Assembly (NCBI GenBank): GCA_001821395.1
Contig: MHLM01000012.1
Coordinates: forward strand, 84,107 to 148,106
Direction of reading: 5' to 3'
Origin: Candidatus Lloydbacteria bacterium RIFCSPHIGHO2_02_FULL_50_18
Lineage (GTDB): Bacteria; Patescibacteriota; Minisyncoccia; Phycocordibacterales; UBA6899
DNA length: 64,000 nucleotides
Below the pieces are notes generated by a model. The model was not told the DNA's origin. It saw only the letters and a program-made list of their open reading frames with translations, and made no database searches. The position numbers were made by a program, and so were the translations under genes. This document shows, piece after piece, positions 4,074 through 36,276 of the stretch. Each line of letters opens with the position of its first letter. Within the stretch, counting starts at the first letter, position 1.

Positions 4074-4085
4074 TTGATATATAAA

Positions 4086-4117
4086 GAAAAAACCTCCGAT
4101 GAGTCGGAGGTATTTTT
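4086..4117. terminator. bidirectional terminator hairpin
   Basis: cctccga-tgag-tcggagg stem with an A-run upstream and a T-run downstream. The minus-strand gene ends at 4116. Confidence 0.55.
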
Positions 4118-14421: not shown

Positions 14422-14424
14422 TTT

Positions 14425-17567: not shown

Positions 17568-18654
17568 ATGAGTAAAAAACCAGCTATTGTCGAACCCCTC
17601 AAATTAGATGGCTTAGGGCTAGACTACAACAGGTTTGCAGAAGAACTTTCAACCGCCGAATATGCGCTCGGGTTAATTGAGGGTATGCAAAAAAACTACT
17701 AAACCCAAATCTTTTGATTAGTCCCCTAACCGCCAAGGAAGCAGCTGCGAGTTCTAAGATAGAAGGAACACAAAGTGATGTGTCCGATGTATTTATGTTT
17801 GAGGCGGGTGGGGAAACTAAACATGCAGATACACGTGAGGTTGTGAATTACCGTCGAGCAATGCGTTTGGCCATGACGGAGATTAAAAAAGGAAGAGAGG
17901 TAAGCAGTCATCTGGTAGAGACCCTTCACGGAGTATTATTGAAAGATGTCCGTCATATTGGCAATCTTGGAAAATATAGAGAAGGACAAGTTTGGATTGC
18001 CGAACGATCTGGTGATCCAATTGAGAAAGCGATATACGTCCCACCCGAGGCAATACACGTGCGCGGGTTGGCTCAGAATTTGATTGAATACATAAACGTG
18101 GGGAAGGAGAATGCATTGATTAAGGCAGGCGTTGCACACTATCAGTTTGAGGCAACTCATCCATTTGATGATGGGAATGGGAGAATTGGGAGACTCCTTA
18201 TTCCAATTGTGTTACACAGACATCAGAGATTGTCATCACCAATTCTTTATCTTAGCGGCTACTTTGATGATCATCGAGATGAATATATCGCGAGGCTCCA
18301 TGCATTGGATGATGGTGCTGATATGGAAGATTGGTTAAAATTTTTTTACATTCGGTTAGCCAGCAGCTCGGTCAAACACAAAAAATAATTGAAGGAATTT
18401 ATGAACTCTATGACCAGCTTAGACTTGAAAATAGGGGGATAAAATCACCATTCGTTATTCCCCTCATTGATATGATGTTTGAGATGCCAATTTTTACGTT
18501 GGCCATGGTGCAAGAATCAACTAAATGCTCGAGCTATATAACTGCATCGACACTAATTAAGAGAATGATTGATGCGGGTCATGTTGAAAATGTAGGAAAG
18601 GTTGGAAGGGAAAAGCTTTATGAATTCCGCTCGCTTGTAAAAGTATTAAAATAA
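17568..18654 (+). pseudogene. Fic/Doc-family protein interrupted by two -1 frameshifts at homopolymers
   Basis: HPFDDGNGRIGRLL is the Fic motif. The N-terminus (frame of 17568) stops at 17700. The middle is ORF 17714..18388 and the C-terminus is ORF 18331..18654. Frame switches occur at A7 (17689-17695) and T7 (18341-18347). Confidence 0.7.
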
Positions 18655-18782: not shown

Positions 18783-19440
18783 ATGAGTATTGGTGAAAAT
18801 GTTTTTGAGCGTACGGGTCCTTCGACCATGTCGGCGCGCGGTTTCTACGGCGCACTGGGATTGATCGTCGCGTTTGGGCTCTGGTTATCAAGTCTCGTGG
18901 CGGCAGAGTTCACTGCATGGCAGCCGTCACTCATGGTGATACTGCTTGTCGGGCTCGGCATCCCGATCATCGGCATTGTGATCGCTGCGAAGTCTGAGAC
19001 TCCAGCGATCTCATTCCTCGGCTACCTCATGGTGGCGGTGCCATTCGGGATGCTCCTGGGGCCAACGCTCAATCAGTATTCGCCCGAGGTCGTGCAAAAG
19101 GCGATGTTCTACACCGCGGCGACCACGCTCGTCATGGGTGCGGCGGGCGTGCTCTATCCGAATTTCTTTGCGCGGATCGGCGGCGCACTCTTCATGGCTC
19201 ATGGCACTCATCGGGCTTGTCGTTGTGCGCGTCATCGGCATCTTTATTCCCGCATTGGGCAACATGTCGGCCATCGACTATATTTCTGCGGGTATCTTCT
19301 CGCTTTACATCGGCTACGATATGTACCGTGCAAGTGCAATGCCGCACACGCTCGACAATGCCGTTGACGCCGCATTGTCCCTGTATCTCGACATCATCAA
19401 TTTGTTCCTCAGTTTGCTCCGGATATTCGGCAAGAATTGA
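18783..19440 (+). pseudogene. Bax-inhibitor-1/YccA-family membrane protein disrupted by a 7-bp tandem duplication
   Basis: The C-terminal frame encodes LYLDIINLFLSLLRIF, the BI-1 signature. tcatggc is tandemly duplicated at 19192-19198 and 19199-19205. Removing one copy restores a single 218-aa ORF. Confidence 0.65.
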
Positions 19441-21090: not shown

Positions 21091-21918
21091 CAGAGCTCCC
21101 CTATTTCTTTCCTCCCTTCTTCGGCTTCTTTGCCTCCTTCTTGATGTTGTTGTCTCCGCGTCCCATGTTGTATGCGTCTATTGATAATATTGCACAATTA
21201 TATCATGACACAGCAAAACACCACCGCACATTTGTGCGGTGGTGTTTTGCTTGTTGTTATTTCACTACGACCTTCTTTGGCTTTTTCTTATTTTTCTGCT
21301 GTGCATTGTTTCCTTTTGCCATGACGTATTGCTTATACTGCTAATGAACGAACGTATCTTCAGTGTAGCAGATTTTCGTCATGACATGAAAATGCCCGGT
21401 TGTACCCATGTTGATAGTGGTCATACGGACCGACCCATGCTTATTTGCAAAAACAGGGGATAACTTTCACTACGGAAGGCGCTTTGAGGCTATAATGGTG
21501 ACAACATTTTCGCACATTACGCGCTGGGTGCTTTTGGAGTAAAAAGCGAGCAGGACGTAGTGTGAGAAGATCCACAAAATGGATCCTTATGCTATGTTCC
21601 AGCGAATGGACATATCGTTGCGGAGAAACAAAAACTTCGTTAACGGTAGAGGTTAGTCGTATATCTTTCTTATCAACATCGTGGATACGCGTTCGTTGCC
21701 TACAGCAAGGAATGTGAAAAGTGATGAAGAGAAGTACTCTGGAGCCAATTTTTATGAATCCGTTGTCGAGTGCTAAAAAGCAAAAGTAACGATCGCCAAT
21801 CGTCCTCCCGCATAAAAAAGTATCTGTAGTACTTTTTATGCCAGAGTGCATGCTCATCGAAAGATATCAACGAATTGTCATAGCGCCGCGTTCAGGCAAG
21901 AACGCGGCGTTATGTATT

Positions 21919-22041
21919 GAGGATTGAGAACATAGCAAATTTCTTTGTTGAAACATGAACATGCAAGCAAGCCGTACTCCGAGTACGGCTTGCTTGCATG
22001 TTCATGTTTCGTCTCGAACTTTGCATATGTTCTCAATCCTA
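21919..22041. repeat. about 123-bp nested imperfect palindrome with a near-perfect 59-bp core at 21951-22009
   Basis: aaacatgaacatgcaagcaagccgtactc-c-gagtacggcttgcttgcatgttcatgttt is flanked by the outer inverted repeat aggattgagaacata / tatgttctcaatcct. Confidence 0.7.
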
Positions 22042-22125
22042 AAGGATGAATGTCCAATCGCTACTGTTGCGATTTTTTTATTATCTGGCAGTCTGAGTAC
22101 AGAATGGTCTTCGAGGGAGGCAGGA

Positions 22126-22812
22126 ATGGTTCAAGCATCAGTCAACAAAGAGCAACTAGATAAGCTTCGAAATACTTATTGCGATGCAGCGCAGTACTTG
22201 GGTGTCCCACGCACAAGTGCAGAACGATGTTTCACGAAACTCGCGCAATACTATGCTGAACCGCATCGGCGCTATCATACGCTGGCTCATCTGCACCAGT
22301 GCATGGTTGAGTTTGCGGATGTAGTGTGGCACAGTCAGGATCCTGCGCTCATTGTCATGGCTATTTTTTACCATGATATTACGTACGACGTTCATCGCAA
22401 CGATAACGAAGCGAAGAGTGCGTTGTATTGGAAATTCATTGCCCGCCATGTACTCGAAGTGAAGAACGAAGGATTCATCGCCGAGGTCGCCCGATTGATC
22501 GAACTTAGCGGCGAACATCGTACGGACCCTGTCACTGATCCTGATGCCGCGCTCTTCCTCGACGTCGACATGTCGATTCTAGGAGCTGACGCACCGGAGT
22601 ACGACGCATATGCGGCCGCAGTGCGACAGGAGTATGCGCACTGCAGTGACGATGAATGGGCGTTTGGTCGCGTTGCGAAGTTCCTTGATCCGACCTTGTG
22701 TGAGGACAGAATATTTCTCACTGATATCTTTCGTCAAAAATATGAAGAAAATGCGCGCGCAAACCTGATGGAAGAGCGTTGCCGCTATCAAAAAAACCTA
22801 CCGCTCGCATGA
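22126..22812 (+). CDS. HD-domain metal-dependent phosphohydrolase
   Basis: Ordered H...HD...D motifs: YHTLAHLHQ, IFYHDITYD, FLDVDMSILG. GAGGGAGG RBS precedes the ATG at 22126. Confidence 0.55.
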   Translation: MVQASVNKEQLDKLRNTYCDAAQYLGVPRTSAERCFTKLAQYYAEPHRRYHTLAHLHQCMVEFADVVWHSQDPALIVMAIFYHDITYDVHRNDNEAKSALYWKFIARHVLEVKNEGFIAEVARLIELSGEHRTDPVTDPDAALFLDVDMSILGADAPEYDAYAAAVRQEYAHCSDDEWAFGRVAKFLDPTLCEDRIFLTDIFRQKYEENARANLMEERCRYQKNLPLA

Positions 22813-22824
22813 GCGGTTTTTTCT
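22799..22824 (+). terminator. rho-independent terminator overlapping the stop codon
   Basis: ccgctc-gcat-gagcgg plus TTTTTT. Confidence 0.6.
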
Positions 22825-22911
22825 TGACAAAGAGTATTTGTTGTGGAGAATCAAGAACGGCAGTCCCAATAGGGAAAGCCGTTCTTTTACAACCAACCGA
22901 AAGGATAACTC

Positions 22912-23760
22912 ATGAGCGAGATAGCCGAAAAAGTAAACCCATCGACCGATGGGCAGATGAAAGACCTCACCAGCGTTCTGGTGACCGCCATGCCCGATCA
23001 CGAAAAATTCCCACGGGAACAAATCGAGTATTGGATGAAAAACAAGCGCTTGCTCGCGGCAAAGGTGCGCGCAGTGCTTGAGGGGGCCCCACGTGGCCTT
23101 GGGCAAACAACGCAAGAAGTGCTGCAATCCTGGGAGCGATTTTATCGCGAGATACTCAAAATAAAAGTCGACTTCTCGGATATCGATACTCCGCCACGTT
23201 TTAGTGAATTTAAGGCCATTATTCCCGTGATCTCATCTATTTCCGCAGAAGAAATTGTCGGTTTACTCACGAAAAATTTCAATCATGAATTTAGTTTGAG
23301 AGACTTTCAGTGCAACTTAGATGAGCTCTCGCACTTGCGTCCGGAGGGGCACTATGCGGTTTTGCACCGAGGTACTCGAATGCCCGATCTCGATATGCAG
23401 ATCACCAGGCAGCGAGCTACTGAGGGTGTGGTCGCGAGGTACACTTGCGTACATCCTCCCGTCGATGCTTCTTCATTTATGAATCCAAGGGAGTACATCC
23501 TTTTTGCGGCGTTCAACGTCTGGATGACATCTGGTCGTCACTCGTCACCATGGTTCGACTACGACATTGCTGGCACTAATTTTATTGGCGAGAGAGCGCT
23601 CCCTGGAACCGCGTTCCCACAGATGGATGCTTTTGATCGACCACTGGCCGCGTGTTGCCACTCTAGCAATAACCATGAGTGCCACATTGAACACCCTTGT
23701 GGCTTTGAAAATTCCTACGGGCGACTTGTGAAAGTACTTTCTTCCTTGCGCATCGCATAA
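22912..23760 (+). CDS. hypothetical protein, paralog of 30268..31089
   Basis: AAAGGA RBS. Collinear similarity to the other copy (W..F..+D...IIP ... Y.V.HRG...PD). Confidence 0.5.
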   Translation: MSEIAEKVNPSTDGQMKDLTSVLVTAMPDHEKFPREQIEYWMKNKRLLAAKVRAVLEGAPRGLGQTTQEVLQSWERFYREILKIKVDFSDIDTPPRFSEFKAIIPVISSISAEEIVGLLTKNFNHEFSLRDFQCNLDELSHLRPEGHYAVLHRGTRMPDLDMQITRQRATEGVVARYTCVHPPVDASSFMNPREYILFAAFNVWMTSGRHSSPWFDYDIAGTNFIGERALPGTAFPQMDAFDRPLAACCHSSNNHECHIEHPCGFENSYGRLVKVLSSLRIA

Positions 23761-23793
23761 CGTGTTTATCACCACCGAGAAATCGGTGGTTTT

Positions 23794-24864
23794 TTATATG
23801 ATGAGCATTCCGTCGCCGAATGAGTAGAAGCGGAATTTTTCCCTTATGGCGATGTCGTAGAGCGCGAGGATGTCGCGCTTCGCTCTTTTGTGTTTGAGGA
23901 GTGCGTCGACCAAGAGCATGAGTGATGAGCGAGGGACGTGGAAGTTCGTAATAAGCCCATCTGCAATCTTGAATTCGTACGGCGGGTAGATAAATATATT
24001 CGTAGGCTTAGAACATTGCTCAACACTCCAAGGTTCCACCTTGGAGTGTTGGATTGCAGCGGATTCGAGGGTACGCATGGCGGTAGTGCCGACGGGGATG
24101 ATGGGAATACCCGCCGCTTTTGCACTATTTATTTTTTTTGCGCTTTCCTTTGTGATATCGAGATACTCCGCAAAAAGTTTTTTACTTTTGAAATTTTGTT
24201 CATCAATCGGCGCAAAGGTACCCGCACCTACATGAAGCGTGACCTCCGTACGCGTGATGTGTTCACGTTTCATTTTTTCGAGTAAGCGATCGGTGAAATG
24301 GAGCGACGCCGTTGGTGCTGCAATTGACGCGGGATATTTCGCGAGAATACTTTGGTATTTTTCACGCAATGTGTGCTCGGACATCGTATTGCCCTTGATA
24401 TATGGGGGTATTGGCGTCACACCCTCTTTCTCGAGCAAACTCCAAAGGCTGCCTTTGGATACACTGGGATTGAAAAAGAAAAATTGCTCTTCTTGTCTTT
24501 CGACCTCAAGGTGCGCCCCTGACTTAAAGAAGAGTTTGGCACCGGGAAGGATCTTGCGGTCGACCACTCCTTTAATAGAGATGTCGCCGGGACGGAATTC
24601 ATTCATCATGAGAAGCACCTCGATCTTGCCGCCCGTTTCTTTGGAAAGCCACAATCGGGCAGGAACGACCTTTGTATCATTAAAGACAAGCAGGCTGGGT
24701 TTGGGGAGATATTGGTCAATATTCCGGAAAACATCAAAATGCACCTTATCAGTTTTCGTATCGTAGACGAACAATCGAGCGGAATCTCGCGGAGAAGCGG
24801 GCTCATTGGCGATAAGCCCCTCAGGGAGGTGGTAGTTATAATCATCGAGAGAGATCATGTGCAC
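23794..24864 (-). CDS. queA: S-adenosylmethionine:tRNA ribosyltransferase-isomerase
   Basis: VFNDTKVVPARL, GGKIEVLL, IPPYI, AAPTASLHFT, TLHVGAGTF, VGTT..R.LES, TNFH.P.S.L are all canonical QueA blocks. Confidence 0.9.
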   Translation of the reverse strand: MHMISLDDYNYHLPEGLIANEPASPRDSARLFVYDTKTDKVHFDVFRNIDQYLPKPSLLVFNDTKVVPARLWLSKETGGKIEVLLMMNEFRPGDISIKGVVDRKILPGAKLFFKSGAHLEVERQEEQFFFFNPSVSKGSLWSLLEKEGVTPIPPYIKGNTMSEHTLREKYQSILAKYPASIAAPTASLHFTDRLLEKMKREHITRTEVTLHVGAGTFAPIDEQNFKSKKLFAEYLDITKESAKKINSAKAAGIPIIPVGTTAMRTLESAAIQHSKVEPWSVEQCSKPTNIFIYPPYEFKIADGLITNFHVPRSSLMLLVDALLKHKRAKRDILALYDIAIREKFRFYSFGDGMLII

Positions 24865-24928
24865 ATGCTATCAGGTGAAGCAATATGGGCAAGCTTTTCT
24901 ATGTTTAGCAACGTATTTTCGACTTTTT

Positions 24929-24951
24929 TTGTCAAGGTTTAACCTTGACAA
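24929..24951. promoter_or_regulatory. second copy of the TGTCAAGGTT-N-AACCTTGACA palindrome, upstream of queA
   Basis: ttgtcaaggtt-t-aaccttgacaa lies 65 bp upstream of the queA start on its template side. Confidence 0.4.
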
Positions 24952-25034
24952 TTTTAAGTGGTGCGTTTGCGGCTACGATAATATTCCACAGATAATCCAC
25001 AGAGTTATCAACAGCAAAATGTAATAATTATGGC

Positions 25035-25069
25035 AAAAAATAACCCCAACCCTTCGGTCGGGGTTGGGG
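25035..25069 (-). terminator. terminator for minus-strand gene 25074..25313
   Basis: ccccaaccc-ttcggtc-gggttgggg hairpin with a plus-strand A-run, which reads as a T-run on the minus strand. Confidence 0.5.
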
Positions 25070-25073
25070 TAGG

Positions 25074-25313
25074 TCAGTCGACCTCTGTGATGGTAAACTT
25101 TTCGCTGCAGGAGTAGAGGAAGCCCTCCTCGAGTCCCCAACAGAAAAAGAACATCCCGTCGCCCTCCTTGGGGGGCACCCCATCCTTATTCGAAACGGTC
25201 GTTACTCCACCTTCGCGAGTGACTTTGACGTCAACGTAGGACCTGGTGGAACTTAAATCTTCCATAAATTCTGCGTGCTCATCTTCGGTGAGTATCGCTG
25301 TGGCTATTTTCAT
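25074..25313 (-). CDS. hypothetical small protein (79 aa)
   Basis: AAGGAG RBS 6 nt before the ATG. A terminator lies downstream. Confidence 0.5.
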   Translation of the reverse strand: MKIATAILTEDEHAEFMEDLSSTRSYVDVKVTREGGVTTVSNKDGVPPKEGDGMFFFCWGLEEGFLYSCSEKFTITEVD

Positions 25314-25476
25314 TGTTGCTCCTTCGGTTTGGTTTTTGAGTCTGACATGACATTAGCACGAAAAATATTTATGTCAATAATTTGATATTCCTATATTTTA
25401 TAACATATTTTGACTTAATTCGAACGCCACACCTAGGAAGTGAGGGAAATAGGTCTTTTGGGAGACTTCACGGGCT

Positions 25477-25585
25477 TGAAATACGCACCTGGGAGCGAGG
25501 TATTGCTTTTTGAGGGGCTACGGACCGCGGCGGCGGGAGTTTGAGGAAAAAGTCAGCAGACTTTTATCCGTGCCCTCAAAAAGCA
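25477..25585 (+). repeat. hairpin-forming repeat element, copy 1 (family TTGCTTTTTGAGRG...CYCTCAAAAAGCAA)
   Basis: It is the reverse complement of 29479-29636 at both ends, each about 45 nt at over 90% identity. It contains an internal long-range inverted repeat. Confidence 0.6.
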
Positions 25586-25750
25586 ATGCCGAGCGTATAC
25601 ATTGACTTCTTTGGGCTGTTTAAGTAGTATCTAGCACAAGGTATTTCAAATAGTTTCACTCTACGCCGTGGGAGGATCAGGGGCGTTGGGAAATCTATAT
25701 CGAAAAATCGCCAAATCGCCCAAAAGGCTTAGAAAAACTTTTATAAACAT

Positions 25751-26095
25751 ATGACAAGATCACTAAAAAAGGGACCATACGTGTACGAGAAATTGCTCAA
25801 GAAGATCGAGGGCAAGAAGCCGGATGTTGCCGGTGTAATTAAGACCTGGGCGCGTGCGTCGCAGATCTCACCTGAGATGGTGGGGCATACCTTCGGTGTG
25901 CACAATGGCAAGGACTTCATTGAGGTAAAGGTCAGCGAGGAGATGGTTGGACATCGTCTCGGTGAATTCTCAGGAACCCGCAAATTCTATCGTCACGGTG
26001 GAAAGATGCAAAAGGACCTTGAGGCTAAACAGAAGGAAGCCGAGATCTCTGCAGCAAAGGCCGCAAAGGGAGCTGATGCCGCTAAGAAAAAATAA
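25751..26095 (+). CDS. rpsS: 30S ribosomal protein S19 (K/A-rich C-terminal tail)
   Basis: KKGPYV...[25 protein letters not shown] match the S19 core. Confidence 0.95.
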
Positions 26096-26104
26096 TTCAT
26101 TACT

Positions 26105-26560
26105 ATGGAAATCACCGCTAAACTCTCTCAGTATCGTCAGGCTCCCCGCAAGGTCCGGCTTGTTGCTACCCTCTTAAAGGGTATGACTGTCGAAAACGCG
26201 CTTGTTGAACTTTCTCATCGCACAAAACGTGTTGCCCCGATCTTTCACAAGCTCGTCTTGTCTGCCGTTGCAAATGCAAAGATGCAAGGACTCGACGAGA
26301 AGACACTCATCGTTAAAGGCATCCGTGTCGACAAAGGACCGGTGCTGAAACGTTCCCGCCCTCGCGCACAAGGTCGCGCATTCCCGATTCATAAGCATAC
26401 GAGTCATATCGTAGTAACGCTTACCGATGGAGCAGTCGCCGACACAAAGACAACAACAACCGCAACCGCCGACACAAAGACCGTAAAGGTAGCTGTTGCA
26501 AAAAAGGTCGTTGCAAAGAAGTCCGTTACCAAGAAAAAAGTAGCCGCCACGGCGAAGTAA
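26105..26560 (+). CDS. rplV: 50S ribosomal protein L22 (C-terminal T/A/K-rich extension)
   Basis: L22 core AKLSQYRQAPRKVRLVATLLKGMTVENAL. Confidence 0.93.
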   Translation: MEITAKLSQYRQAPRKVRLVATLLKGMTVENALVELSHRTKRVAPIFHKLVLSAVANAKMQGLDEKTLIVKGIRVDKGPVLKRSRPRAQGRAFPIHKHTSHIVVTLTDGAVADTKTTTTATADTKTVKVAVAKKVVAKKSVTKKKVAATAK

Positions 26561-26570
26561 TTTTTATCCT

Positions 26571-27275
26571 ATGTCACATCATGTACATCCATATGCACAT
26601 CGGTTAGGAATCCTCCGTGATTGGAAGTCGCGTTGGTTCGCCGATCGTGGTCAGTATCAAGAATATTTAAAAGGTGACGTTCTTTTGCGTGAGTTTCTTG
26701 AGAAGAAGCTTCGCGGCTCACACGTCTCCGAAATTGTCATGGAGCGCAATGACAAAACTTGGAAGATCCTCATCAAGACTGCACGACCGGGACTCATTAT
26801 CGGTCGCAGCGGAGAGGGCGCAGTAAAATTGAAGAATGACGTACTTTCGAAACTCGCCCGCTTAAAGATGAAGCATCCGAAAGACATCAAGATCGAGATA
26901 GAGGAAGTGCGCAGTCCTGAGTCGAATGCGGCGATAGTCGGTCAGATGACTGCCGAGGGACTTGAGAAGCGTATGCCATTCAAGCGTGTGATCAAGCAGT
27001 TGCTTGAGAAGGTGATGGCGAATCGCGACGTTAAGGGAGCACGCATCGAACTTTCCGGACGTTTGGGTGGTGCAGATATGTCTCGCCGCGAGTTTGTGAA
27101 GGCAGGCAATATTCCACTGCAGACCATTCGTGCCGATGTTGATTTTGCACGAGAGAAGGCTTTCCTTCCTTACGGCATCATCGGTATTCAGGTGTGGATA
27201 TACAAGGGTGAAGTGTTTGCCGAGAAGGCAAAGGCTGTGGTCGCACCAAAGGCACAGGGGGCTCATCACTCATAA
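26571..27275 (+). CDS. rpsC: 30S ribosomal protein S3
   Basis: KH and S3-C domains (IIGRSGEGAVKLK, ELSGRLGGADMSRREFVKAGNIPLQTIRADVDF). Confidence 0.95.
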   Translation: MSHHVHPYAHRLGILRDWKSRWFADRGQYQEYLKGDVLLREFLEKKLRGSHVSEIVMERNDKTWKILIKTARPGLIIGRSGEGAVKLKNDVLSKLARLKMKHPKDIKIEIEEVRSPESNAAIVGQMTAEGLEKRMPFKRVIKQLLEKVMANRDVKGARIELSGRLGGADMSRREFVKAGNIPLQTIRADVDFAREKAFLPYGIIGIQVWIYKGEVFAEKAKAVVAPKAQGAHHS

Positions 27276-27288
27276 TCAGAACAGGCTT

Positions 27289-27714
27289 ATGTTATTTCCA
27301 AAAAAAGTAAAACATCGTAAATGGCAGTCGGATCGCTGGAACCGCAAGAAGAATCGCATCGAGTCGCGCGGAACGACCCTCGCCTATGGTGCATATGGAT
27401 TGAAGGCGGAGACCGAGTCACGCATCACTTCAAATCAGATCGAAGCTGCACGCCGCGTATTATCGCGCAACGTCGGAAAAACAGGACGCGTATGGATCCG
27501 CGTATTCCCGGATAGACCATATACACAGAAAGGAGCCGAAGTTCCGATGGGTAAGGGTAAGGGAGATCCTCAGGGGTTTGTCGCAGAAATACTTCCGGGT
27601 CGCATCATCTTTGAGATCGACGGAGTGACGTTTGTGCAGGCAAAGGAAGCAATTAGAAAAGCCGGGTCGAAACTTGCAGTCCTCTCACGTATGGTTACTC
27701 GCGATATTGTCTAA
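27289..27714 (+). CDS. rplP: 50S ribosomal protein L16
   Basis: MLFPKKVKHRKWQSDR...; the ORF-track start at 27130 is an upstream extension through rpsC. Confidence 0.93.
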   Translation: MLFPKKVKHRKWQSDRWNRKKNRIESRGTTLAYGAYGLKAETESRITSNQIEAARRVLSRNVGKTGRVWIRVFPDRPYTQKGAEVPMGKGKGDPQGFVAEILPGRIIFEIDGVTFVQAKEAIRKAGSKLAVLSRMVTRDIV

Positions 27715-27724
27715 TCCCATCTAT

Positions 27725-27916
27725 ATGAAAATCACAGAAATACGAAAGATGTCGGACAAAGAAATCGAGAAGGCACTCGTTGAACAGCGCGCAGAGGTCA
27801 AGCAATTCCGTTTTGATATTACGGGAAGCAAGGCAAAAGATCTGAAAGCAGGTGCAAATGCAAAGAAGGCCGTTGCGCGTCTCTTGACCGAACTTTCATC
27901 TCGGAACGAGAATTAA
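27725..27916 (+). CDS. rpmC: 50S ribosomal protein L29
   Basis: MKITEIRKMSDKEIEKALVEQRAEVKQFRF. Confidence 0.9.
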   Translation: MKITEIRKMSDKEIEKALVEQRAEVKQFRFDITGSKAKDLKAGANAKKAVARLLTELSSRNEN

Positions 27917-27918
27917 TC

Positions 27919-28227
27919 ATGACGACTATGGAAACCAAAACAATACAAACGAAAAAGCAGTCGATGGTCGGGGTCGTTGTGTCCGACAAGATGGACAAAA
28001 CACGAGTCGTCCTGGTTACTCGCTACGAGCAGCATCCAAAGTATAAGAAGTACGTGAAGCATCACAAACGCTACAAGGTGCACGATGCAAAAAATGAGTT
28101 CAAGGTCGGGGACAAAGTGCGTATCGAAACATGTGCGCCACTTTCAAAGCATAAGGCCTTCACCGTGGTCGAAAAGGTCGGAACTCAGGACGTTGAACAG
28201 TACATGAAGACGCGCGGAGCAGCATAA
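27919..28227 (+). CDS. rpsQ: 30S ribosomal protein S17
   Basis: VGVVVSDKMDKTRVVLVTRYEQHPKYKKYVK...FKVGDKVRIETCAPLSKHKAFTVVE. Confidence 0.93.
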   Translation: MTTMETKTIQTKKQSMVGVVVSDKMDKTRVVLVTRYEQHPKYKKYVKHHKRYKVHDAKNEFKVGDKVRIETCAPLSKHKAFTVVEKVGTQDVEQYMKTRGAA

Positions 28228-28239
28228 TCAGACAAATAT

Positions 28240-28608
28240 ATGATACAACCACGCACAATAGTAAAGATCGCTGATAATTCCGGAGGAAAGGTCGGACGTA
28301 TCTTTAAGGTTCTCGGCGGTTCGAAGAAGCGCTATGCGGGTCTCGGTGATCTCGTCGTGCTTTCTGTACAGACCGCAGAACCACGTAAGGGAGTGAAGAA
28401 GGGCGAGGTCTGCCGCGCGGTCGTCGTGCGCGTAGCAAATGCTTTTCGCCGACATGACGGATCGTACATCCGTTTTGACGAGAATGCGGTCGTGCTGATC
28501 GATGCAAAGAATGAGCCTCGTGCCGGTCGCGTTTTTGGCCCGATCCCTCGTGAGATCTCAGAAAAGGGATTCAAAAAGATTATTTCTTTGGCCCCTGAGG
28601 TCGTTTAA
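28240..28608 (+). CDS. rplN: 50S ribosomal protein L14
   Basis: MIQPRTIVKIADNSGGK... Confidence 0.95.
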   Translation: MIQPRTIVKIADNSGGKVGRIFKVLGGSKKRYAGLGDLVVLSVQTAEPRKGVKKGEVCRAVVVRVANAFRRHDGSYIRFDENAVVLIDAKNEPRAGRVFGPIPREISEKGFKKIISLAPEVV

Positions 28609-28621
28609 TTTCAATCGGCTT

Positions 28622-28855
28622 ATGCATATAAAAAAAGGAGACGAAGTAGTGATCCTCTCGGGAGATGATAAGGGGAAAAAGGGTAAGGTCGCTCATGTGA
28701 TGCCGAAGCTCGGCACCGCGGTCGTCGAGGGCCTCAACATGCGAAAGAAGCATCAGCATGCTCGTCAGGATGGAAAGAAGGGGCAAGTCATCGAAATAGC
28801 CATGCCGCTCCGTGTGTCCAAGTTGGCATTGGCAGACAAGCCAAAGAAGAAATAA
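28622..28855 (+). CDS. rplX: 50S ribosomal protein L24
   Basis: MHIKKGDEVVILSGDDKGKKGKV... Confidence 0.9.
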   Translation: MHIKKGDEVVILSGDDKGKKGKVAHVMPKLGTAVVEGLNMRKKHQHARQDGKKGQVIEIAMPLRVSKLALADKPKKK

Positions 28856-28865
28856 TTGAACAACC

Positions 28866-29477
28866 ATGAACGTCCCAACAATAAAAGAAAAGATAAAGTC
28901 CGCATATCCAAAGCTGAAAGAGAAGCATGGATATAAGAACGTCATGCAGGCACCTAAGGTGGAGAAGGTCATCATTTCCGTGGGCACCGGTAAGATGTCC
29001 CGCAATGACAAGAAGAAGAATGAGTTCGTCGCGAGCCGGCTTGGTATGATCACCGGACAGAAGGCGTCTGCACGAAAGGCAAAACAATCGATCGCTTCGT
29101 TCAAGCTTCGTGAGGGTGATGTCATCGGACAGATGGTCACGATGCGCGGGAGCAAAATGATGGGTTTCCTCGACAAGCTTGTGAACGTGGCTATCCCGCG
29201 TACGCGCGACTTCCGAGGATTCCGTGCCGCCTCGATCGATGCAATGGGGAATTTCACCCTTGGTATCAAGGAGCACACGATCTTCCCTGAGACTGCAGAT
29301 GAAGACCTGAAAGACGTCTTCAGCCTCGCACTCACTGTCGTTCTTTCAACGAGGAACAAGGAGGAGTCCATTGATTTCTTGGAGCACCTTGGTTTCCCGT
29401 TCCGCGAAACTGCGAACGAGGGAAAGAAAAAGAAAGAGAAGAAGGTTGACGCCCCAAGTAAGAAGTGGAAGAAGTAA
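28866..29477 (+). CDS. rplE: 50S ribosomal protein L5 (K-rich C-terminal tail)
   Basis: L5 core (NVMQAPKVEKVIISVGTGK ... FRGFRAASIDAMGNFTLGIKEHTIFPE). Confidence 0.95.
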   Translation: MNVPTIKEKIKSAYPKLKEKHGYKNVMQAPKVEKVIISVGTGKMSRNDKKKNEFVASRLGMITGQKASARKAKQSIASFKLREGDVIGQMVTMRGSKMMGFLDKLVNVAIPRTRDFRGFRAASIDAMGNFTLGIKEHTIFPETADEDLKDVFSLALTVVLSTRNKEESIDFLEHLGFPFRETANEGKKKKEKKVDAPSKKWKK

Positions 29478-29478
29478 T

Positions 29479-29636
29479 TACCGCTCAGCATTGCTTTTTG
29501 AGAGCACGGATAAAAGTCTGCTGACTTTTTCCACCGCAAGGGTACTTCCAATTTCATACTCCCTATGGTCGTTGAAATTTAGGTCGCTCACACCTCGCAC
29601 TGCCCGGCTCCGTAGCCTCTCAAAAAGCAATACTTC
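29479..29636 (-). repeat. hairpin-forming repeat element, copy 2 (inverted relative to copy 1; about 70-nt extra internal segment)
   Basis: It starts immediately after the rplE stop. Both ends are reverse-complementary to 25477-25585. An internal long-range stem GCATTGCTTTTTGAGAG / CTCTCAAAAAGCAATAC is present. Confidence 0.6.
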
Positions 29637-29719
29637 GCTCCCAGGTTCGTTTTTCGAGCGGGGATCCGAAAAGACTTATTGTCTTCGCCCAAGAGGATCG
29701 GAGTTCGCGTTTGAAATAC

Positions 29720-29750
29720 AAAACCCGCTCATTTGAGCGGGTTTTGTTCT
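29720..29750 (+). terminator. rho-independent terminator
   Basis: cccgctc-atttg-agcggg plus TTTTGTT. Confidence 0.6.
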
Positions 29751-29833
29751 TTTGAGAATAAGCTCAATGAGGCCCTTTACTTTTTTGAAAAAAAGCAGAA
29801 TCTGAGAAGAGTTGTTTTTATTGAGAGGTAGAG

Positions 29834-30202
29834 ATGCAGATCCGCTTTCGGGTTCGCGAACTCGCTTTGGCAATTCGGGAATTTCTCGTCGGTGTCTTTG
29901 TCTTCTTCCGGCGGTCAGTGAAAAGAAGGGATGAAGTACGATATTGCTTCATGTGCCAAGAGTACGGCCATCCGCTTACTAAAGTATCGTTCATGATCCG
30001 CACAGAAGCGCGGAGGGGGGCAAAGAAGGAGGCGCCATTCTCGGTCATGGAACTCCACGTGTGCAGTATGCATCATCCTGACAAGGACGTCGTCGGGGCA
30101 GACCTGTCCGAGGAAACACGATCATTTCTTCGAAACAATGATGCTGCCGCAGCGTGTGTCTACTATTACCATGATCCCGATCATGTTTTCCGCCTCGGAT
30201 AA
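29834..30202 (+). CDS. hypothetical Cys/His-rich protein (122 aa)
   Basis: GAGGT RBS. Its 3' end plus terminator are duplicated at 31107-31179. Confidence 0.35.
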   Translation: MQIRFRVRELALAIREFLVGVFVFFRRSVKRRDEVRYCFMCQEYGHPLTKVSFMIRTEARRGAKKEAPFSVMELHVCSMHHPDKDVVGADLSEETRSFLRNNDAAAACVYYYHDPDHVFRLG

Positions 30203-30216
30203 GAGGTGGTTTTTTT
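30143..30216 (+). repeat. 73-bp direct repeat, copy 1 (includes terminator hairpin ccgcctcggataagaggtgg plus T7)
   Basis: About 93% identical to 31107-31179. Confidence 0.7.
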
Positions 30217-30267
30217 ATACTCCGTACGTTATCCAAAGGTAATTGGACAAAGTAGCAAAAATGCAAT

Positions 30268-31089
30268 ATGGTCAGTACGGAAAAGCTAGCCCCGGGCTCC
30301 ATCGTGGGAATATTCTTTGAGAAGGAACAGTCCATGCAAACAGATAAGACAGACTCGGCTTCTGCAACGCCGGAACAACTCGCGATGCTTACTGGCGAGT
30401 TCGCTCTGGCTCTGGCTAAGGCAAAGCCATCCGCCGCTCTCATGCAGCATCTGCTCCGAAGCAGGGTGGCAACACGGAAGATGATCATCGCGGCCCTATC
30501 GACGCAGGGAAGAATCAGTCACACGATTGATCCTCGCCTCGTGCAGTGTCAAAAGCTATGGGAGAAACTCGGAGTGGTGCTCGACTGCATGGACAATCTT
30601 GTCATGCCGGAAATCCCATCCGGTTGGCGCGGTATCGCCATCATCCCACCACTCACAAATGAAGCACTCCTCGCTCTTTGCAAAAAGCACTTTCCGATAT
30701 GGTCGAAACGCGATGGCCTCGACAATATCTTGAGAGAACAAAATCGACCACGATGCACCTACGTCGTCGTCCATCGTGGTGGTATGGAGCCGGATAAAGA
30801 GCATCGTAATAAGAGTCATGATGATGCGGTCAATGAAGGTTTGTATTTTTTGACGCTGAAGGAGCGTATCTGCATCGAGCTTCTTCATTTCATAAAAACA
30901 GGCAAGCATTTTGATGTTAAGGGGACCATGACAGTCACATCCTCGCTGACGATGGGTGGCGATGCGTTTAATGTGTATTGGAGTTCGCATATTCAGACGT
31001 TCATTGTGGATGGTTGCCGTACGGTGACTTCGTACTCGACGAATGGGCTTCGTCAGGCCGTTTTCTTTGGATTGAAGCCTTACCGTTGA
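30268..31089 (+). CDS. hypothetical protein, paralog of 22912..23760
   Basis: Flanked by the 73-bp direct repeats. The start may be the ATG at 30334 (GAGAAGGAA RBS). Confidence 0.5.
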   Translation: MVSTEKLAPGSIVGIFFEKEQSMQTDKTDSASATPEQLAMLTGEFALALAKAKPSAALMQHLLRSRVATRKMIIAALSTQGRISHTIDPRLVQCQKLWEKLGVVLDCMDNLVMPEIPSGWRGIAIIPPLTNEALLALCKKHFPIWSKRDGLDNILREQNRPRCTYVVVHRGGMEPDKEHRNKSHDDAVNEGLYFLTLKERICIELLHFIKTGKHFDVKGTMTVTSSLTMGGDAFNVYWSSHIQTFIVDGCRTVTSYSTNGLRQAVFFGLKPYR

Positions 31090-31106
31090 TTGCTGAGCCG
31101 ACACTT

Positions 31107-31179
31107 GTGCCGCAGCGTGTGTCTACTATTATCATGATCCCGATCATGTTTTCCGCCTCGGTTAAGAGGCGGTTTTTTT
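31107..31179 (+). repeat. 73-bp direct repeat, copy 2
   Basis: See copy 1. It ends in ccgcctcggttaagaggcgg plus T7. Confidence 0.7.
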
Positions 31180-31211
31180 ATAAGACAAATTTTTGACTTT
31201 CCTGAAAGTTA

Positions 31212-32261
31212 ATGTATGGTGAGCACTGGTTTTGTACTTTTATATCTAACCTGAGGAAAGACATGGACATTAATACGTCTGACCCCGGTGACAATGGACG
31301 ACGGGGTATCGATAGGGGTTTGAGCGACAGGCGCGAGTATGACCTTGCCAGGACCCTCATTGGAACGTTGCTGTTCGTTAAGTTATATCGAGCTGCAGGC
31401 GCTCTCAAGTTCCTGAAGGCGCTCAAGGTTCTTGGTCCTCTCATGATGGTGGTCTCCGGAATTTTCACGGGAGAGATCTATTCTCTCGTCATGAAAACCT
31501 CCCTTGTTGTGGGGCTGCTATTTTCTCTTGCGGTGCATGAGCTCGGTCACTATGTTGCGACGAAGCGATGCGGCCTCCGCGCGGCGTGGTGGCTCTTCAT
31601 TCCATTCGTCGGAGCGTGGATGGAAGCGCCGGATTTTCGTTCCCGCAATGACGAGGCGTGCATCGCTTTTGGTGGTCCTTTCATCGGAGGGATATTTTCT
31701 CTGATATTGTTCTGTGCATGGTTGGTACTACCGCTGTCCAATGAATGGGGAAATATTCTCTTCACCATAGCTTTCCTTTCGACGATGTTGAATCTCTTCA
31801 ATATGATCCCGCTTTCGCCGCTTGATGGCGGAAGGATCACCGAAGGGGTGAGTATCTGGTTTCGCGTCGCAGGGTTCGTTGTATTGATCACGCTTTCTCT
31901 CTATACCGCTCAAGCATCGATGGCTCTTGTGTGGTTGCTGGTGATGAGTGAAGTTCGGATGTCCGCACGATTGAGGTTTGTCACGGCGGCGCTCATGCTG
32001 ATCCTTATGGCGGTACTCATTATACTGGGGTATCACGGGCCTTCCGCTCTTGAAGATTGGTGCTATTTTGCGGTCGGCGTATGGCTGCTCTCCGCTTTTT
32101 ATAAGCGTTGGAAGAATCCGCCCCCTCGGCATGATCATCGCAATGTCAGATTGACTCCAGCGGAGCGAAAAAAATGGAAACGTTCGTACTGTGGGCTCCT
32201 TCTTTTCCTCATCGTATTGTTTGCCGCATTTTTCCCTCACATGAGCAAACTTGCTTTTTGA
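31212..32261 (+). CDS. peptidase M50 / site-2-protease-family membrane metalloprotease
   Basis: HELGHYV (HExxH) in a TM helix and NLFNMIPLSPLDGGRI, the S2P LDG motif. Multiple TM helices. Start may be 31263. Confidence 0.7.
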   Translation: MYGEHWFCTFISNLRKDMDINTSDPGDNGRRGIDRGLSDRREYDLARTLIGTLLFVKLYRAAGALKFLKALKVLGPLMMVVSGIFTGEIYSLVMKTSLVVGLLFSLAVHELGHYVATKRCGLRAAWWLFIPFVGAWMEAPDFRSRNDEACIAFGGPFIGGIFSLILFCAWLVLPLSNEWGNILFTIAFLSTMLNLFNMIPLSPLDGGRITEGVSIWFRVAGFVVLITLSLYTAQASMALVWLLVMSEVRMSARLRFVTAALMLILMAVLIILGYHGPSALEDWCYFAVGVWLLSAFYKRWKNPPPRHDHRNVRLTPAERKKWKRSYCGLLLFLIVLFAAFFPHMSKLAF

Positions 32262-32267
32262 GTTGAA

Positions 32268-32298
32268 TAACTCGCCGATAATCTCGGCGAGTTTTTTG
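32268..32298 (+). terminator. rho-independent terminator
   Basis: ctcgccga-taat-ctcggcgag plus TTTTTT. Confidence 0.6.
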
Positions 32299-32368
32299 TG
32301 CATTGTTGAATTGCATACTGTTGAGAGCAGTACTATACTTTATGTACATTAATATATATCCTCTCGTC

Positions 32369-35113
32369 ATGTCCTCAACAAAAAGGTTTTTTTCACTGTG
32401 CATGTTTGGCATATTCCTCCTTCCCTCACTCGCCGCTGCTGACACCACCATCTCCTCCAACATCACCACGAATCAAACCTGGACCACGGCAAGCAGTACA
32501 TACATCGTCACCACCGGTATTGCGATCAACGCAGGTGTCACCCTCACCATCAACCCCGGAGTGATCGTGAAGTTCAGCGGGATCATGTCCGGCATCACCG
32601 TGAATGGGACGTTAAACGCCCAAGGAACCGCACTTGCACCGATATACTTCACCTCATACAAAGATGACACCGTGAATGGTGATACGAATGGCGATGCGAC
32701 CTCAACAACCCCAGCCGGGGGCGACTGGTTTTGGTTCTCCATTCCCGCGGGCGGAGCAGCAACGATCGACAACGCGATCATCCGCTATGGCGGCAGTTTC
32801 AATACTGCGCTGTTCTATAATAACGGAGGTAACCTCACCCTTGCGAACTCCGAAGTCGCATCCAGTTCCAAGTATGGCATCTGGACATATTCCGGCATAT
32901 CAACTATCGCTTCTTCCACCATCGATCACAACGCGAGCTACGGTATCTATCATACGGGAGGCACCACTACCGTTGCCACGAGTACGATCCGCGATCACAG
33001 CACCTATGGCTTCTCCACCCAGAGCGGAACTGGAAATCTCATCCTCACCAACAATATCTTTTCCGGTAATCTTCAAGGTGGAGGACTGGTGAACTTGGCC
33101 GACAGTGCAAACGTGACCCATACGAACAACAGTGCAACGGGGCAAGGAAAGGGTGGCATGGTCATCTATGGTTCTCCCAATAAGGCACAGACATGGGGAG
33201 CAGACCCGCTCTTCCCGTATATTATCTCAACGACAACAGGGTCGGTCACCGTGAGTACGTATGCCATCACCCTCAATCCCGGTGCGATCATCAAATTTGA
33301 AGGAACAACCGCAGGGTTTGCGGGCAATTCAGGCACCTTCACTGCCGCGGGAACTACACAATCTCCCGTATATTTCACCTCCATCAAGGACGACACCGTG
33401 GGTGGCGACACCAATGGGAATGGCACGGGTACCACTCCATCTGCGGGGGATTGGGATGGTCTCATGTCCCAGAACTATAGCAATCTCACGTTGAACAATA
33501 CCGTGATCCGCTACGGTGGCTCAAAGATGCTCTATGCCAACGGTGTGAACAGCGTCATCAACCTATTCAACTCAGAAGTTGCCAGCAGTTCAAGTGCGGG
33601 AATCTATAGTGATGCAGGAACAGTGAATGCCACCGGTACGAGCATTCACGACAATCGCTACGGCTATTATCACGGCAATGTCCAAGGCAATAGCATTGCC
33701 CACATTGCCAATGCCGGCAACACCATCTATCGCAATAGCACCTATGGTATTTATAACAATGGAACCGCCCTCGTGAATGCCGAGCAGGTATACTGGCCGG
33801 CGACAACAACGGGAGCGACGATGAATGGGCCGTATAGTACAAGCACCAACCCAGGGGGGCATGGAGATGCTGTGCTCCCCACATACATCGACTTTGATCC
33901 TTGGCTCTCTACCGTGTCAGGAAATATCGCAACGAATACCACGTGGACTGCTTCGAGTACATATGTCATTGATGGAACGCTCACGGTGAATGCGGGGACG
34001 ACACTCACGATTCCTGCAGCTACGGTGGTGAAGTTTGCCAATGCAACCTCAAAGATCAGCGTCTCGGGGAGCTTGGTTGCAGATTCTGCAGCGTCTTCCT
34101 CACGAATATATTTCACGTCAATCAAGGATGATGCGGTGGGAGGGGATACCAATGGAGATGGGGGTGCGACTTCACCTGCTGCGGGAGATTGGGATGGGAT
34201 CAAAGTGAATGCGGGAGGCGTTGCAACACTGAACTTCATTTCTGCTCGCTATGGAGGAAGTGGTGGGCCCATGCTTTGGAACTATGCAGGAACGTTGGAT
34301 CTTAATAATTCAGAAATTGCGAGCAGTAGTAATACGGGAATCTTCCATTCCTCGGGTGCCACGCAATTAATAGTTCGAGCTTGTGATATTCACAACAATA
34401 ATTATGGCATATTTGTTGACGACAGCTCGCTTGTGACAATCGGCAGCAACAATATTCATGGCAATGTTGTGGGAGTAAATGATAATACTTTTTTTGGGAT
34501 TGATATTAGATATAACTATTGGGGTGATGCAAGTGGCCCATATAATTCTGTCTATCACCCGACTGGGACCGGTGATACCATCGTTGAGAATGCGTTTACG
34601 CTTGTTTCTCCATGGTTAGACAGGGTACATTATTTGTATTTCTTAAACCACAATTTGGTTACTTCGATTACCAGTGGAGTATTGGATTGGAATTGGTTCA
34701 ACGGCACATCTACTTATGCGACGGCTTGGTATGCAGGAGTTAACACATGGAACACATATGGAAATTCGGTTGGAGGAGTTACTTTTGCAACAAGTACCAC
34801 GGCAACATCCTCAGCTGATTTACTCGTTTTGGACATGGCTAGCTCATCTAGTGATTTATTCTATGCCATCTACGACCCCTTTGTTACTCCTACGGAAATT
34901 AAATTTAACCCTTATTATATGAACACTGCAACTGCTAATATAAGGCAAATGACCACAACTCATGAACTTGGTCATGCCCTAGGGCTTTGGCACAGTTATA
35001 TAAACAACATCATGATTGCATCCCCAGCTTCAACTACTGGTCAGGTTTCACTGGGCACTCAAGATATGTTGGATTACGATTATTGTTGGGTGAGTCATAA
35101 TTGTGGGATATAA
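32369..35113 (+). CDS. secreted beta-helix repeat protein with C-terminal metzincin-type zinc protease motif (914 aa)
   Basis: Signal peptide MSSTKRFFSLCMFGIFLLPSLAAA. Three modules of about 250 aa each end in (I/A)RYGGS and carry repeated NSEVASSS, IYFTS(I/Y)KDD, GDTNG and GDWDG motifs. C-terminal THELGHALGLWHS matches HExxHxxGxxH. Confidence 0.6.
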   Translation: MSSTKRFFSLCMFGIFLLPSLAAADTTISSNITTNQTWTTASSTYIVTTGIAINAGVTLTINPGVIVKFSGIMSGITVNGTLNAQGTALAPIYFTSYKDDTVNGDTNGDATSTTPAGGDWFWFSIPAGGAATIDNAIIRYGGSFNTALFYNNGGNLTLANSEVASSSKYGIWTYSGISTIASSTIDHNASYGIYHTGGTTTVATSTIRDHSTYGFSTQSGTGNLILTNNIFSGNLQGGGLVNLADSANVTHTNNSATGQGKGGMVIYGSPNKAQTWGADPLFPYIISTTTGSVTVSTYAITLNPGAIIKFEGTTAGFAGNSGTFTAAGTTQSPVYFTSIKDDTVGGDTNGNGTGTTPSAGDWDGLMSQNYSNLTLNNTVIRYGGSKMLYANGVNSVINLFNSEVASSSSAGIYSDAGTVNATGTSIHDNRYGYYHGNVQGNSIAHIANAGNTIYRNSTYGIYNNGTALVNAEQVYWPATTTGATMNGPYSTSTNPGGHGDAVLPTYIDFDPWLSTVSGNIATNTTWTASSTYVIDGTLTVNAGTTLTIPAATVVKFANATSKISVSGSLVADSAASSSRIYFTSIKDDAVGGDTNGDGGATSPAAGDWDGIKVNAGGVATLNFISARYGGSGGPMLWNYAGTLDLNNSEIASSSNTGIFHSSGATQLIVRACDIHNNNYGIFVDDSSLVTIGSNNIHGNVVGVNDNTFFGIDIRYNYWGDASGPYNSVYHPTGTGDTIVENAFTLVSPWLDRVHYLYFLNHNLVTSITSGVLDWNWFNGTSTYATAWYAGVNTWNTYGNSVGGVTFATSTTATSSADLLVLDMASSSSDLFYAIYDPFVTPTEIKFNPYYMNTATANIRQMTTTHELGHALGLWHSYINNIMIASPASTTGQVSLGTQDMLDYDYCWVSHNCGI

Positions 35114-35124
35114 CATTGAAAACC

Positions 35125-35853: not shown

Positions 35854-36092
35854 GATGCTTCTGCGGGGGTATACTTATTTGTGAACACAACGGCTCATGA
35901 ACAAAAAAATACTAAAATACACACTTGTCATCTTTGGGATATTCCTGCTCGGAGGCGTCGCGTTGTCGATCCATTTGTTCATCCAAAGTAAATTTGGTGT
36001 TTACGCTCCTCTAGATCGCGGATTTCCGGTAAGGACATTCCATCCAACGGGTATTAGTATTGATCAACCCAGCATTTGAATGGATACCTATC

Positions 36093-36276
36093 ATAATTGT
36101 GGGATATAACATTGAAAACTATGAACAAAGACATAAAAGATATAATGATTCTTCTTATTGCACTTCTACTCTCCATCGTCGTCATTGCTGGAATATATTA
36201 CGGAATAAAAAGTACTCAAGGAACTGTAGTTTCAACATATTCTCATCAGGGAACGCCTGAAAATCCGGCAATGTAG
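36093..36276 (+). pseudogene. truncated duplicate of the 35096-35290 junction (gene fragment encoding MNKDIKDIMILLIALLLSIVVIAGIYY...)
   Basis: About 80% nucleotide identity over about 185 bp. It includes the last 20 nt of the upstream gene (HNCGI stop) and the first 51 codons of the downstream gene, then a stop. Confidence 0.4.

Follow-up and report, generated by a model that had tools for sequence, protein, structure and literature searches.

Two distant members of a retroelement-linked protein superfamily in a ribosomal gene cluster of Candidatus Lloydbacteria, one of them within an insertion that duplicated its target

What are the two genes without recognizable domains that sit in the ribosomal-protein cluster of a Candidatus Lloydbacteria genome, and why is one of them, and only that one, bracketed by long direct repeats? 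The question is raised by a stretch of 64,000 nucleotides (the window, whose first letter is position 1) from Candidatus Lloydbacteria bacterium RIFCSPHIGHO2_02_FULL_50_18 (assembly GCA_001821395.1, contig MHLM01000012.1, positions 84,107 to 148,106, forward strand), a groundwater metagenome-assembled genome (MAG) from the Parcubacteria of the Candidate Phyla Radiation (CPR), in which the window covers the str/S10/spc ribosomal cluster. Both genes, here called A (22912..23760, plus strand, 282 aa) and B (30268..31089, plus strand, 273 aa), are present as open reading frames (ORFs) exactly where a previous reading made from the letters alone (the sequence-only reading) had placed them; it had taken them for collinear paralogs of unknown nature in separate accessory blocks, and the repeats around B for the mark of a duplication or insertion that carried a terminator with it. 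We consider it probable that A and B are divergent members of a superfamily linked to diversity-generating retroelements (DGRs), that B is an orphaned module inserted with duplication of its target, and that A is a fixed relative.

Direct comparison of the two proteins yields a weak signal: BLASTP aligns 88 aa at 30% identity (E = 2e-4), and hhalign of the two small families returns 81% probability (E = 1.2e-5). A profile search seeded with the B family recovered 970 cluster representatives at E <= 1e-3, 297 of them at E <= 1e-10, mostly of 230-260 aa, that is, an unannotated superfamily of ~250-aa proteins of which B is a member. An alignment of 49 superfamily sequences built without the A family (A9) matches the A family (A2) over 236 aligned columns with 99.5% probability and an E-value of 3.1e-23 in hhalign, and the hidden Markov model (HMM) derived from A9 gives protein A 85.6 bits and finds A and B only in the six-frame translation of the window. 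Membership, in the sense of a near full-length profile match, is seen for B as the profile seed and for A by HMM and hhalign. The motifs that recur across the superfamily are W..FY...FG...D, R.P...Y....R..(V)EPD.E..NKS, TL.ER...EL, HLD..G.T and a C-terminal G.R..V. Judged by these profile matches, A and B are distant members of one superfamily and not recent duplicates of each other. The previous claim that they are collinear homologs is upheld by the superfamily profile, and of the alignments by which it was to be checked, the pairwise one gives a weak signal and the superfamily profile a decisive one.

Neither A nor B matches any domain or sequence in Pfam, NCBIfam, PHROGs or the PDB, in agreement with the earlier statement that they have no known domain; the same four collections hold no match for the tested members of the superfamily, and searches of PDB sequences with three profiles returned nothing significant. 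AlphaFold models reach a mean predicted local distance difference test (pLDDT) score of 48 for B, from a 3-sequence alignment, and of 37 for A, from a 6-sequence alignment. The true start of gene B is probably the methionine codon M23 at 30334, giving a protein of 251 aa, because an AAGGAA Shine-Dalgarno-like site lies upstream of it, the gene calls in two further assemblies of the same species (L006 and L007) agree on it and the homolog alignments begin there.

Thus, the description of these proteins as unknown holds with respect to domains, but the sequence-only reading missed the link of the superfamily to DGRs. The closest homolog of B outside the species is P0002 (61% identity), which is found on L001/L002. 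On L001, a 114-nt stretch at the 3' end of the P0002 gene itself, the variable repeat (VR, 4044-4157), is repeated as a template repeat (TR, 4457-4570), and downstream of the TR lie a bAvd gene on the opposite strand and then a reverse transcriptase (RT) gene. VR and TR differ at 17 of the 28 TR adenines and at 2 of the 86 other sites (Fisher p = 4e-11); since adenine-specific VR/TR mismatches are the diagnostic signature of a DGR target, P0002 is a bona fide DGR variable protein, and B is a homolog of a target with such mismatches. Moreover, P0026 (30% identity to B) on L019 adjoins a bAvd gene and an RVT_1 gene, and the RT and Avd of L019 are 65% and 58% identical, respectively, to those of L001. 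In the DGR-linked members, the C-terminal ~38 codons would be rewritten from the template repeat by an error-prone RT, and, by analogy with other DGR targets, the C-terminal variable surface would bind a ligand.

The 3' end of the P0026 gene (L019 1733-1862) is itself TR-like, with 23% A and an end in CAGAAGTTT as in the L001 TR, and lies 13 nt from avd; VR and TR have probably been collapsed into one in the L019 assembly. L020 ends 12 nt past the stop codon of a superfamily-member gene, and both L019 and L020 fit assembly problems at VR/TR repeats. The other B-type contexts (the window, L003, L014 and L017) show no DGR on the DNA at hand; L014, the one locus found in a scan of genome contigs, has none within ±8 kb.

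The second part of the question concerns the repeats. The sequence-only reading had described 73-bp copies at 30143-30216 and 31107-31179; they are real, but a repeat search places them at 30145-30219 and 31108-31182, with a length of 75 nt, 72/75 identical positions and a spacing of 963 nt, and no third copy exists in the window. Copy 1, on the plus strand, is the 3' end of a Cys/His-rich ORF of 122 aa (29834..30202, plus strand) with its intrinsic terminator: it runs from the last base of codon 104 through codons 105-122 and the stop codon into the hairpin (30190-30209) and the T-run behind it. The identification of the repeat as the last 18 codons of this ORF plus its terminator hairpin was accordingly correct, as the ORF frame, the DNA fold and the terminator scan agree. 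Copy 2, also read on the plus strand, is non-coding and forms the terminator of gene B (hairpin 31153-31172); the frame that matches the Cys/His ORF is open for just 4 codons upstream of it, to a stop at 31094-31096, and contains no start. The hairpin in both copies has the form CCGCCTC-6 nt-GAGG(T/C)GG with a 7-bp stem. Three positions distinguish the copies, two of them synonymous in the Cys/His frame and the third a change of a hairpin pair from G-U to G-C. Copy 2 has TAT and GGCGG, as do L015 and L016, two relatives discussed below, and copy 1 carries two derived changes, a synonymous one in the coding sequence and another in the stem of the terminator. Considered as a possible VR/TR pair, the 75-bp repeat was rejected: its copies differ by C/T, A/T and T/C, and they are located within the Cys/His ORF (copy 1) and outside the B coding sequence (copy 2).

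The decisive evidence on the origin of this arrangement comes from L015 and L016, in which the gene order is L5, Cys/His ORF, M50 peptidase, with a single copy of the repeat and no gene B. By blastn, L015 7140-7210 and L016 721-792 each match both repeat copies of the window, and in the junction alignment (A7) the left flank of copy 1 and the right flank of copy 2 are contiguous in both. Therefore, 888 bp (30220..31107, plus strand) were inserted here and 75 bp of target were duplicated. The Cys/His ORF is kept in both relatives (87% aa identity in L015, 71% in L016), including its C-terminal ...CVYYYHDPDHVFRLG, and has no family in Pfam, NCBIfam or PHROGs; the M50-family peptidase gene (31212..32261, plus strand), which is the right neighbour of the insertion site in the window, directly follows the Cys/His ORF in both. 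The inserted module consists of a promoter-like site at 30244-30272 (promoter scan), gene B and 18 nt past its stop codon; the terminator scan finds no terminator of its own in it, and it shows no compositional anomaly. The duplicated target comprises the terminator and 57 nt of the upstream ORF, and it is the second copy of this terminator that B uses. Thus, relatives in the proposed pre-insertion state, with one repeat copy, do exist, and the insertion itself stands; the notion that the insert brought a terminator along does not, as the terminator was that of the target. The repeat copies diverge from each other by 4%, compared with 14-23% between the lineages, which suggests that the insertion was recent. 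Neither the Cys/His ORF nor the B family found a match in scans of metagenome contigs.

A read-derived variant of the Cys/His ORF, protein P0015 (window ~30128-30190), has an internal deletion of ~60 nt, probably between two GATCAT motifs, and its frame continues across the hairpin of copy 1 as far as the left end of the B module; a minor variant within the population, or else an artefact, may lie behind it.

Is B still a DGR target? The stretch of B in register with the VR and TR of L001 (the VR-equivalent, 30942..31055, plus strand) contains 17.5% A, compared with 26.8% in the rest of the gene, the lowest value of all 165 windows of 114 nt. In 4/4 B-family genes, no stretch of this length is poorer in A than the VR-equivalent, which has 9.6% A in L001, 7.9% in L003, 13.2% in L014 and the above 17.5% here; B is therefore depleted of adenine, albeit less strongly than the other three. 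Such depletion of a VR is the footprint that adenine mutagenesis leaves. It is at adenines that L003 (p = 1e-7) and L014 (p = 8e-5) mostly mismatch the L001 TR, whereas the enrichment at adenine sites is weak in the window copy (p = 0.04, or 0.18 when codon positions 1-2 are considered), where 29% of the non-adenine sites have diverged as against 16-20% in L003 and L014. L001 and L003 have in common a post-VR hairpin, CCAGAACAG-TCCG-CTGTTCTGG followed by a T-run, which lies 30-40 nt past the stop codon and has the right arm CTG(T/C)TCTGG. A hairpin shortly behind the VR serves target recognition in DGRs. This hairpin is absent from the window, where unrelated sequence occupies its place and the duplicated terminator follows ~65 nt after the B stop. 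Furthermore, the homology of B to the other B genes stops at the last codons, and its stop codon lies 7 codons further downstream, adding an extension of 7 residues. No RT, Avd or TR was found in the window, where tblastn with the L001 Avd and RT gave noise only (E >= 0.1) and blastn with VR and TR brought up nothing else; Pfam scans of 30 window ORFs contained no RVT_1 or bAvd, and the window holds no second copy of 30851-31200. Given the lack of RT, Avd and TR in the 64 kb, the loss of the hairpin, the replacement of the 3' end and the weak signal at adenine sites, we favour an orphaned former target, and B is most likely a gene of this kind that now evolves as an ordinary gene.

The alternative that survives best, unlikely as we hold it to be, is that B remains an active remote target of a DGR located elsewhere in the genome, with the terminator hairpin of copy 2 in place of the post-VR hairpin. 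Remote targets have been documented for other DGRs (PMC5758913). The identity of B to a bona fide DGR target and the position of its most A-poor stretch at the VR-equivalent are what such a gene would display, and L003 and L014, without a DGR nearby, nevertheless have adenine-concentrated mismatches, so that remote targeting may be common in the B family. A further point in its favour comes from L007, the assembly of the same species from another sample, which has 8 differences from the window in 30917-30978 and 1 in the remaining ~1.6 kb, so that 62 bp in or close to the VR-equivalent contain 8/9 of them. Yet we rejected this cluster as a DGR signature: third codon positions account for 5/8 of its differences, 3 differences are situated upstream of the VR register, and just 1 of the 5 within it coincides with a TR adenine. 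It is probably a recombination or gene-conversion patch from a diverged allele and not a product of adenine mutagenesis. The missing DGR components, the lost hairpin, the replaced 3' end, the weak signal at adenine sites and the divergence at non-adenine sites likewise speak against remote targeting.

The history of gene A appears to be different. Its module of 965 bp (22823..23787, plus strand) comprises a TTGACA -35-like box (22824-22829), gene A and its own terminator hairpin, which starts at 23770; the family is characterized by a conserved N-terminal PSTDGQMKD..TSV.VTA.PDHE and a C-terminal YGR.V. L015 lacks 22823-23787, and the break lies between the T-runs of the A terminator and that of the preceding HD-like gene, which share ~8 bp. 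In the sister species L010, gene A is present with 89% aa identity and the same left boundary next to another left neighbour, the HD-like gene being absent, and in the more distant L004 an ortholog (40% identity) is located upstream of the S19 block. Because this position is kept in L004 and the gene is present in L010, A can be viewed as a long-term resident that L015 has lost: most likely, it is an older, fixed and non-diversified gene, deleted in L015 between the two terminators. No VR/TR pair or DGR gene accompanies the A-family members in the five contig contexts seen. Thus, of the previous view, the location of A and B in separate accessory blocks holds, but A, given L004 and L010, is probably not a recent insertion like B.

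The HD-like module next to it (window 21916-22817; gene 21955..22812) is itself a case of single-gene presence or absence, being absent in L010 and present in L015, and the stop codon of its gene lies within the loop of the gene's own terminator hairpin. The comparison of the HD-like gene with the gene upstream of A in L004 was negative, and homology of the two was rejected.

With respect to the mechanism, we propose that B entered the lineage of the window recently as an 888-bp promoter-to-stop module that was cut off 18 nt past the stop codon; this cut would have left B without the TR, avd, RT and post-VR hairpin seen in L001/L003. The module would have landed directly after the terminator of the Cys/His ORF, with duplication of the 75 bp that hold the last 18 codons and the terminator, so that the upstream gene would keep its end and B would gain a terminator. 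We infer a one-off recombination or copy-choice event at the terminator hairpin, and not a self-mobile element, because the insert has neither a recombinase nor inverted termini, because the repeat has no additional copies, and because the other modules lack a common att-like sequence. No inverted repeats bound 30220-31107 and no transposase was found; the absence of terminal inverted repeats and the 75-bp length of the duplication are out of keeping with a transposable element of the insertion sequence (IS) or miniature inverted-repeat (MITE) type. The Pfam scans of the 30 window ORFs revealed no recombinase domain among the neighbouring ORFs scanned. All three modules (B, A and HD-like) have their boundaries at terminator T-runs, and the junctions of A and of the HD-like module have ~8 bp in common and lack the 75-bp sequence.

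Integrative elements at tRNA genes target and restore the 3' end of a gene, and integron cassettes are comparable. Accordingly, the 963-bp unit could be a non-autonomous cassette moved by a site-specific recombinase, with the 75-bp repeats as attL and attR, which targets and restores the 3' end of the Cys/His gene. The repeats do consist of the 3' end of the target gene plus its flank, the insertion is precise, exactly one copy is found at the empty site in L015 and L016, and, from one sister genome to another, the accessory gaps of this ribosomal cluster vary in units of whole single-gene modules. Nevertheless, the absence of a recombinase domain among the neighbours and of a further 75-bp copy in the 64 kb, the restriction of the A and HD-like junctions to shared terminator T-runs, and the occurrence of B homologs elsewhere without flanking repeats make us regard this cassette as decidedly improbable.

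A still bolder scenario would have CPR bacteria shuffle DGR-target genes as promoter-to-stop modules into terminator-proximal sites in conserved operons, duplicating the host terminator so that the 75-bp repeats are an att-like footprint, and diversifying the copies in trans by a distant DGR; B would then be a mobile, remotely serviced hypervariable cassette and A the domesticated, fixed descendant of a cassette of this kind. We give this scenario little credence. Finally, mis-joins can create repeats in MAGs, and the 4-codon open frame without a start at copy 2 could be the remnant of a second Cys/His copy, but an assembly artefact, or a tandem duplication followed by deletion with no insertion, is improbable in the extreme: the two-copy structure recurs in L006 and L007, independent assemblies of the same species, and is therefore no artefact; the three assemblies come from different assemblers and are identical at every base of the two copies; at the edges of the repeats, the outer flanks coincide exactly with the empty-site contigs; and duplication with deletion needs at least two extra events.

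Several considerations weigh against the picture of B as an orphaned insert from a DGR-linked superfamily. The search for a DGR covered the 64-kb window, and the genome comprises a 250-kb contig plus others. DGRs were found in just 2/6 of the sampled B-type (non-A-family) contexts, on contigs that are mostly short. The cluster of L007 differences at 30917-30978 could reflect ongoing diversification. The 75-bp target duplication is unusually long for illegitimate recombination and would fit integration at an att site or a Campbell-type crossover. It is conceivable in principle that the empty sites arose secondarily, when recombination between the repeats deleted the module precisely. Lastly, neither the AlphaFold scores nor a PDB sequence match lends support to a fold for the putative VR-bearing domain.

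Among known systems, the closest match is to the targets of DGRs in CPR/Patescibacteria, namely the clade-2 DGRs (Roux et al., 2021; PMC8144416) and the "CPR set" with ungrouped or UVR-class VRs (Wu et al., 2018; PMC5758913). CPR DGR targets typically lack recognizable domains (PMC8144416), and in several CPR DGRs ribosomal protein genes lie between the components (PMC5758913). Like these targets, the proteins described here are small, without a recognizable domain or a transmembrane segment, and have the variable region at the extreme C-terminus; B homologs occur together with VR/TR, bAvd and RT on L001 and with bAvd and RT on L019, and their VR-equivalents are depleted of adenine. Unlike them, B in the window is unaccompanied by TR, Avd or RT in the 64 kb and lacks the post-VR hairpin, and its 3' end has been replaced, whereas the A family has no DGR association in its five contexts and a diverged C-terminal region. 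The variable proteins with a C-type lectin fold (Mtd, TvpA, TaqVP and the archaeal AvpA; PMC2408619, PMC6328139, PMC5006420) are similar in the C-terminal location of the VR, in the invariant scaffold residues G, W and R among hypervariable positions and in an ending of the G.R..V type (A9); this likeness is one of sequence pattern, with no detectable sequence similarity to the solved structures. Elements flanked by att sites at gene 3' ends resemble the B insertion in repeats made of an ORF end and the sequence downstream of it, in a target gene that is left intact and in a single repeat copy at the empty site, but B is a single-gene module of 888 bp without a recombinase or other repeat copies, and its neighbouring modules have no comparable repeats.

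The surroundings of the two genes are as follows. The left part of the cluster contains, according to domain scans, EF-G, EF-Tu, L4 and L2, with L2 at 16482-17327. The first accessory gap, L2|S19, holds Fic, a Bax1-I-like gene, unknown ORFs, the HD-like gene, gene A and queA (minus strand); it is followed by the S19 to L5 block (25751-29477) and by the second gap, L5|S14, with the Cys/His ORF, gene B, the M50 peptidase, a 936-aa beta-helix protein, other ORFs and a VKOR-like gene, to the right of which S14, S8 and further genes lead to SecY. The assignment of A to the first gap and of B to the second is thus confirmed by domain scans of the neighbouring ORFs. Rfam and tRNA scans of the window gave no matches.

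The contents of the L5|S14 gap are wholly different in the window (29886-37273, 7.4 kb) and in L010 (8592-10177, 1.6 kb of unrelated genes), with only the first ~220 bp after L5 in common. The S19-L5 block is flanked by two copies, in inverted orientation, of a palindromic element of 120-180 nt (25474-25595 and 29482-29659), which form long hairpins (RNA dG of -58 and -62 kcal/mol, z of -5.3 and -4.2) and have no match in Rfam. In L010, the left copy is retained and its stem shows compensatory changes, and the right one is lacking; the right-hand segment is missing from L016, and no inverted repeat was detected on L015. Identity between the window and L015 is 95.8% almost exactly between the palindromic elements (25589-29486), compared with ~80% outside, which suggests that the S19-L5 block is a recombination tract bounded by these elements.

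Further right, the 936-aa beta-helix protein (32303-35113) has a C-terminal zinc-metalloprotease-like motif and contains a 96-nt repeat three times (32643, 33369 and 34107). Two adjacent ORFs downstream of the 936-aa protein carry at their starts a direct repeat of 122 nt (35095-35216 and 36091-36212, 89% identity, spacing of 996), which suggests that they are tandem paralogs. An intergenic sequence of 57-71 nt (...AACCCCGCTC...TATATGAATAC...) recurs with 70-72% identity after the ORF that ends at 14421 (14420-14523), after L2 (17329-17399) and near 55.4 kb (55433-55489); possibly, these sites share an element of regulation or of terminator regions. In the L2|S19 block, the Fic gene is apparently split into two overlapping frames, with the Fic domain in 17714..18388 and an SoFic-like C-terminal domain in 18331..18654, and the Bax1-I-like gene (18783-19440) likewise runs on in a second overlapping frame; both may be frameshifts or pseudogenes.

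None of this overturns the current understanding, and the case is a fairly ordinary one; what the present analysis adds to the earlier account is, above all, the link to DGRs and the proof of insertion by empty sites. The pair of filled and empty sites is a clean, base-resolved record of the gain of a single gene by a reduced CPR genome, within an otherwise conserved ribosomal-protein cluster. Furthermore, two "hypothetical" genes, and with them an unannotated superfamily of ~970 sequence clusters that uses the scaffold of retroelement-diversified binding proteins, become approachable for the first time in terms of function. The superfamily also offers a natural series for the fate of DGR targets after the loss of the retroelement, from the active members that come with a DGR on L001 and L019, through the homologs on L003 and L014 with none nearby, to B as an apparent orphan and A as a fixed, syntenic relative.

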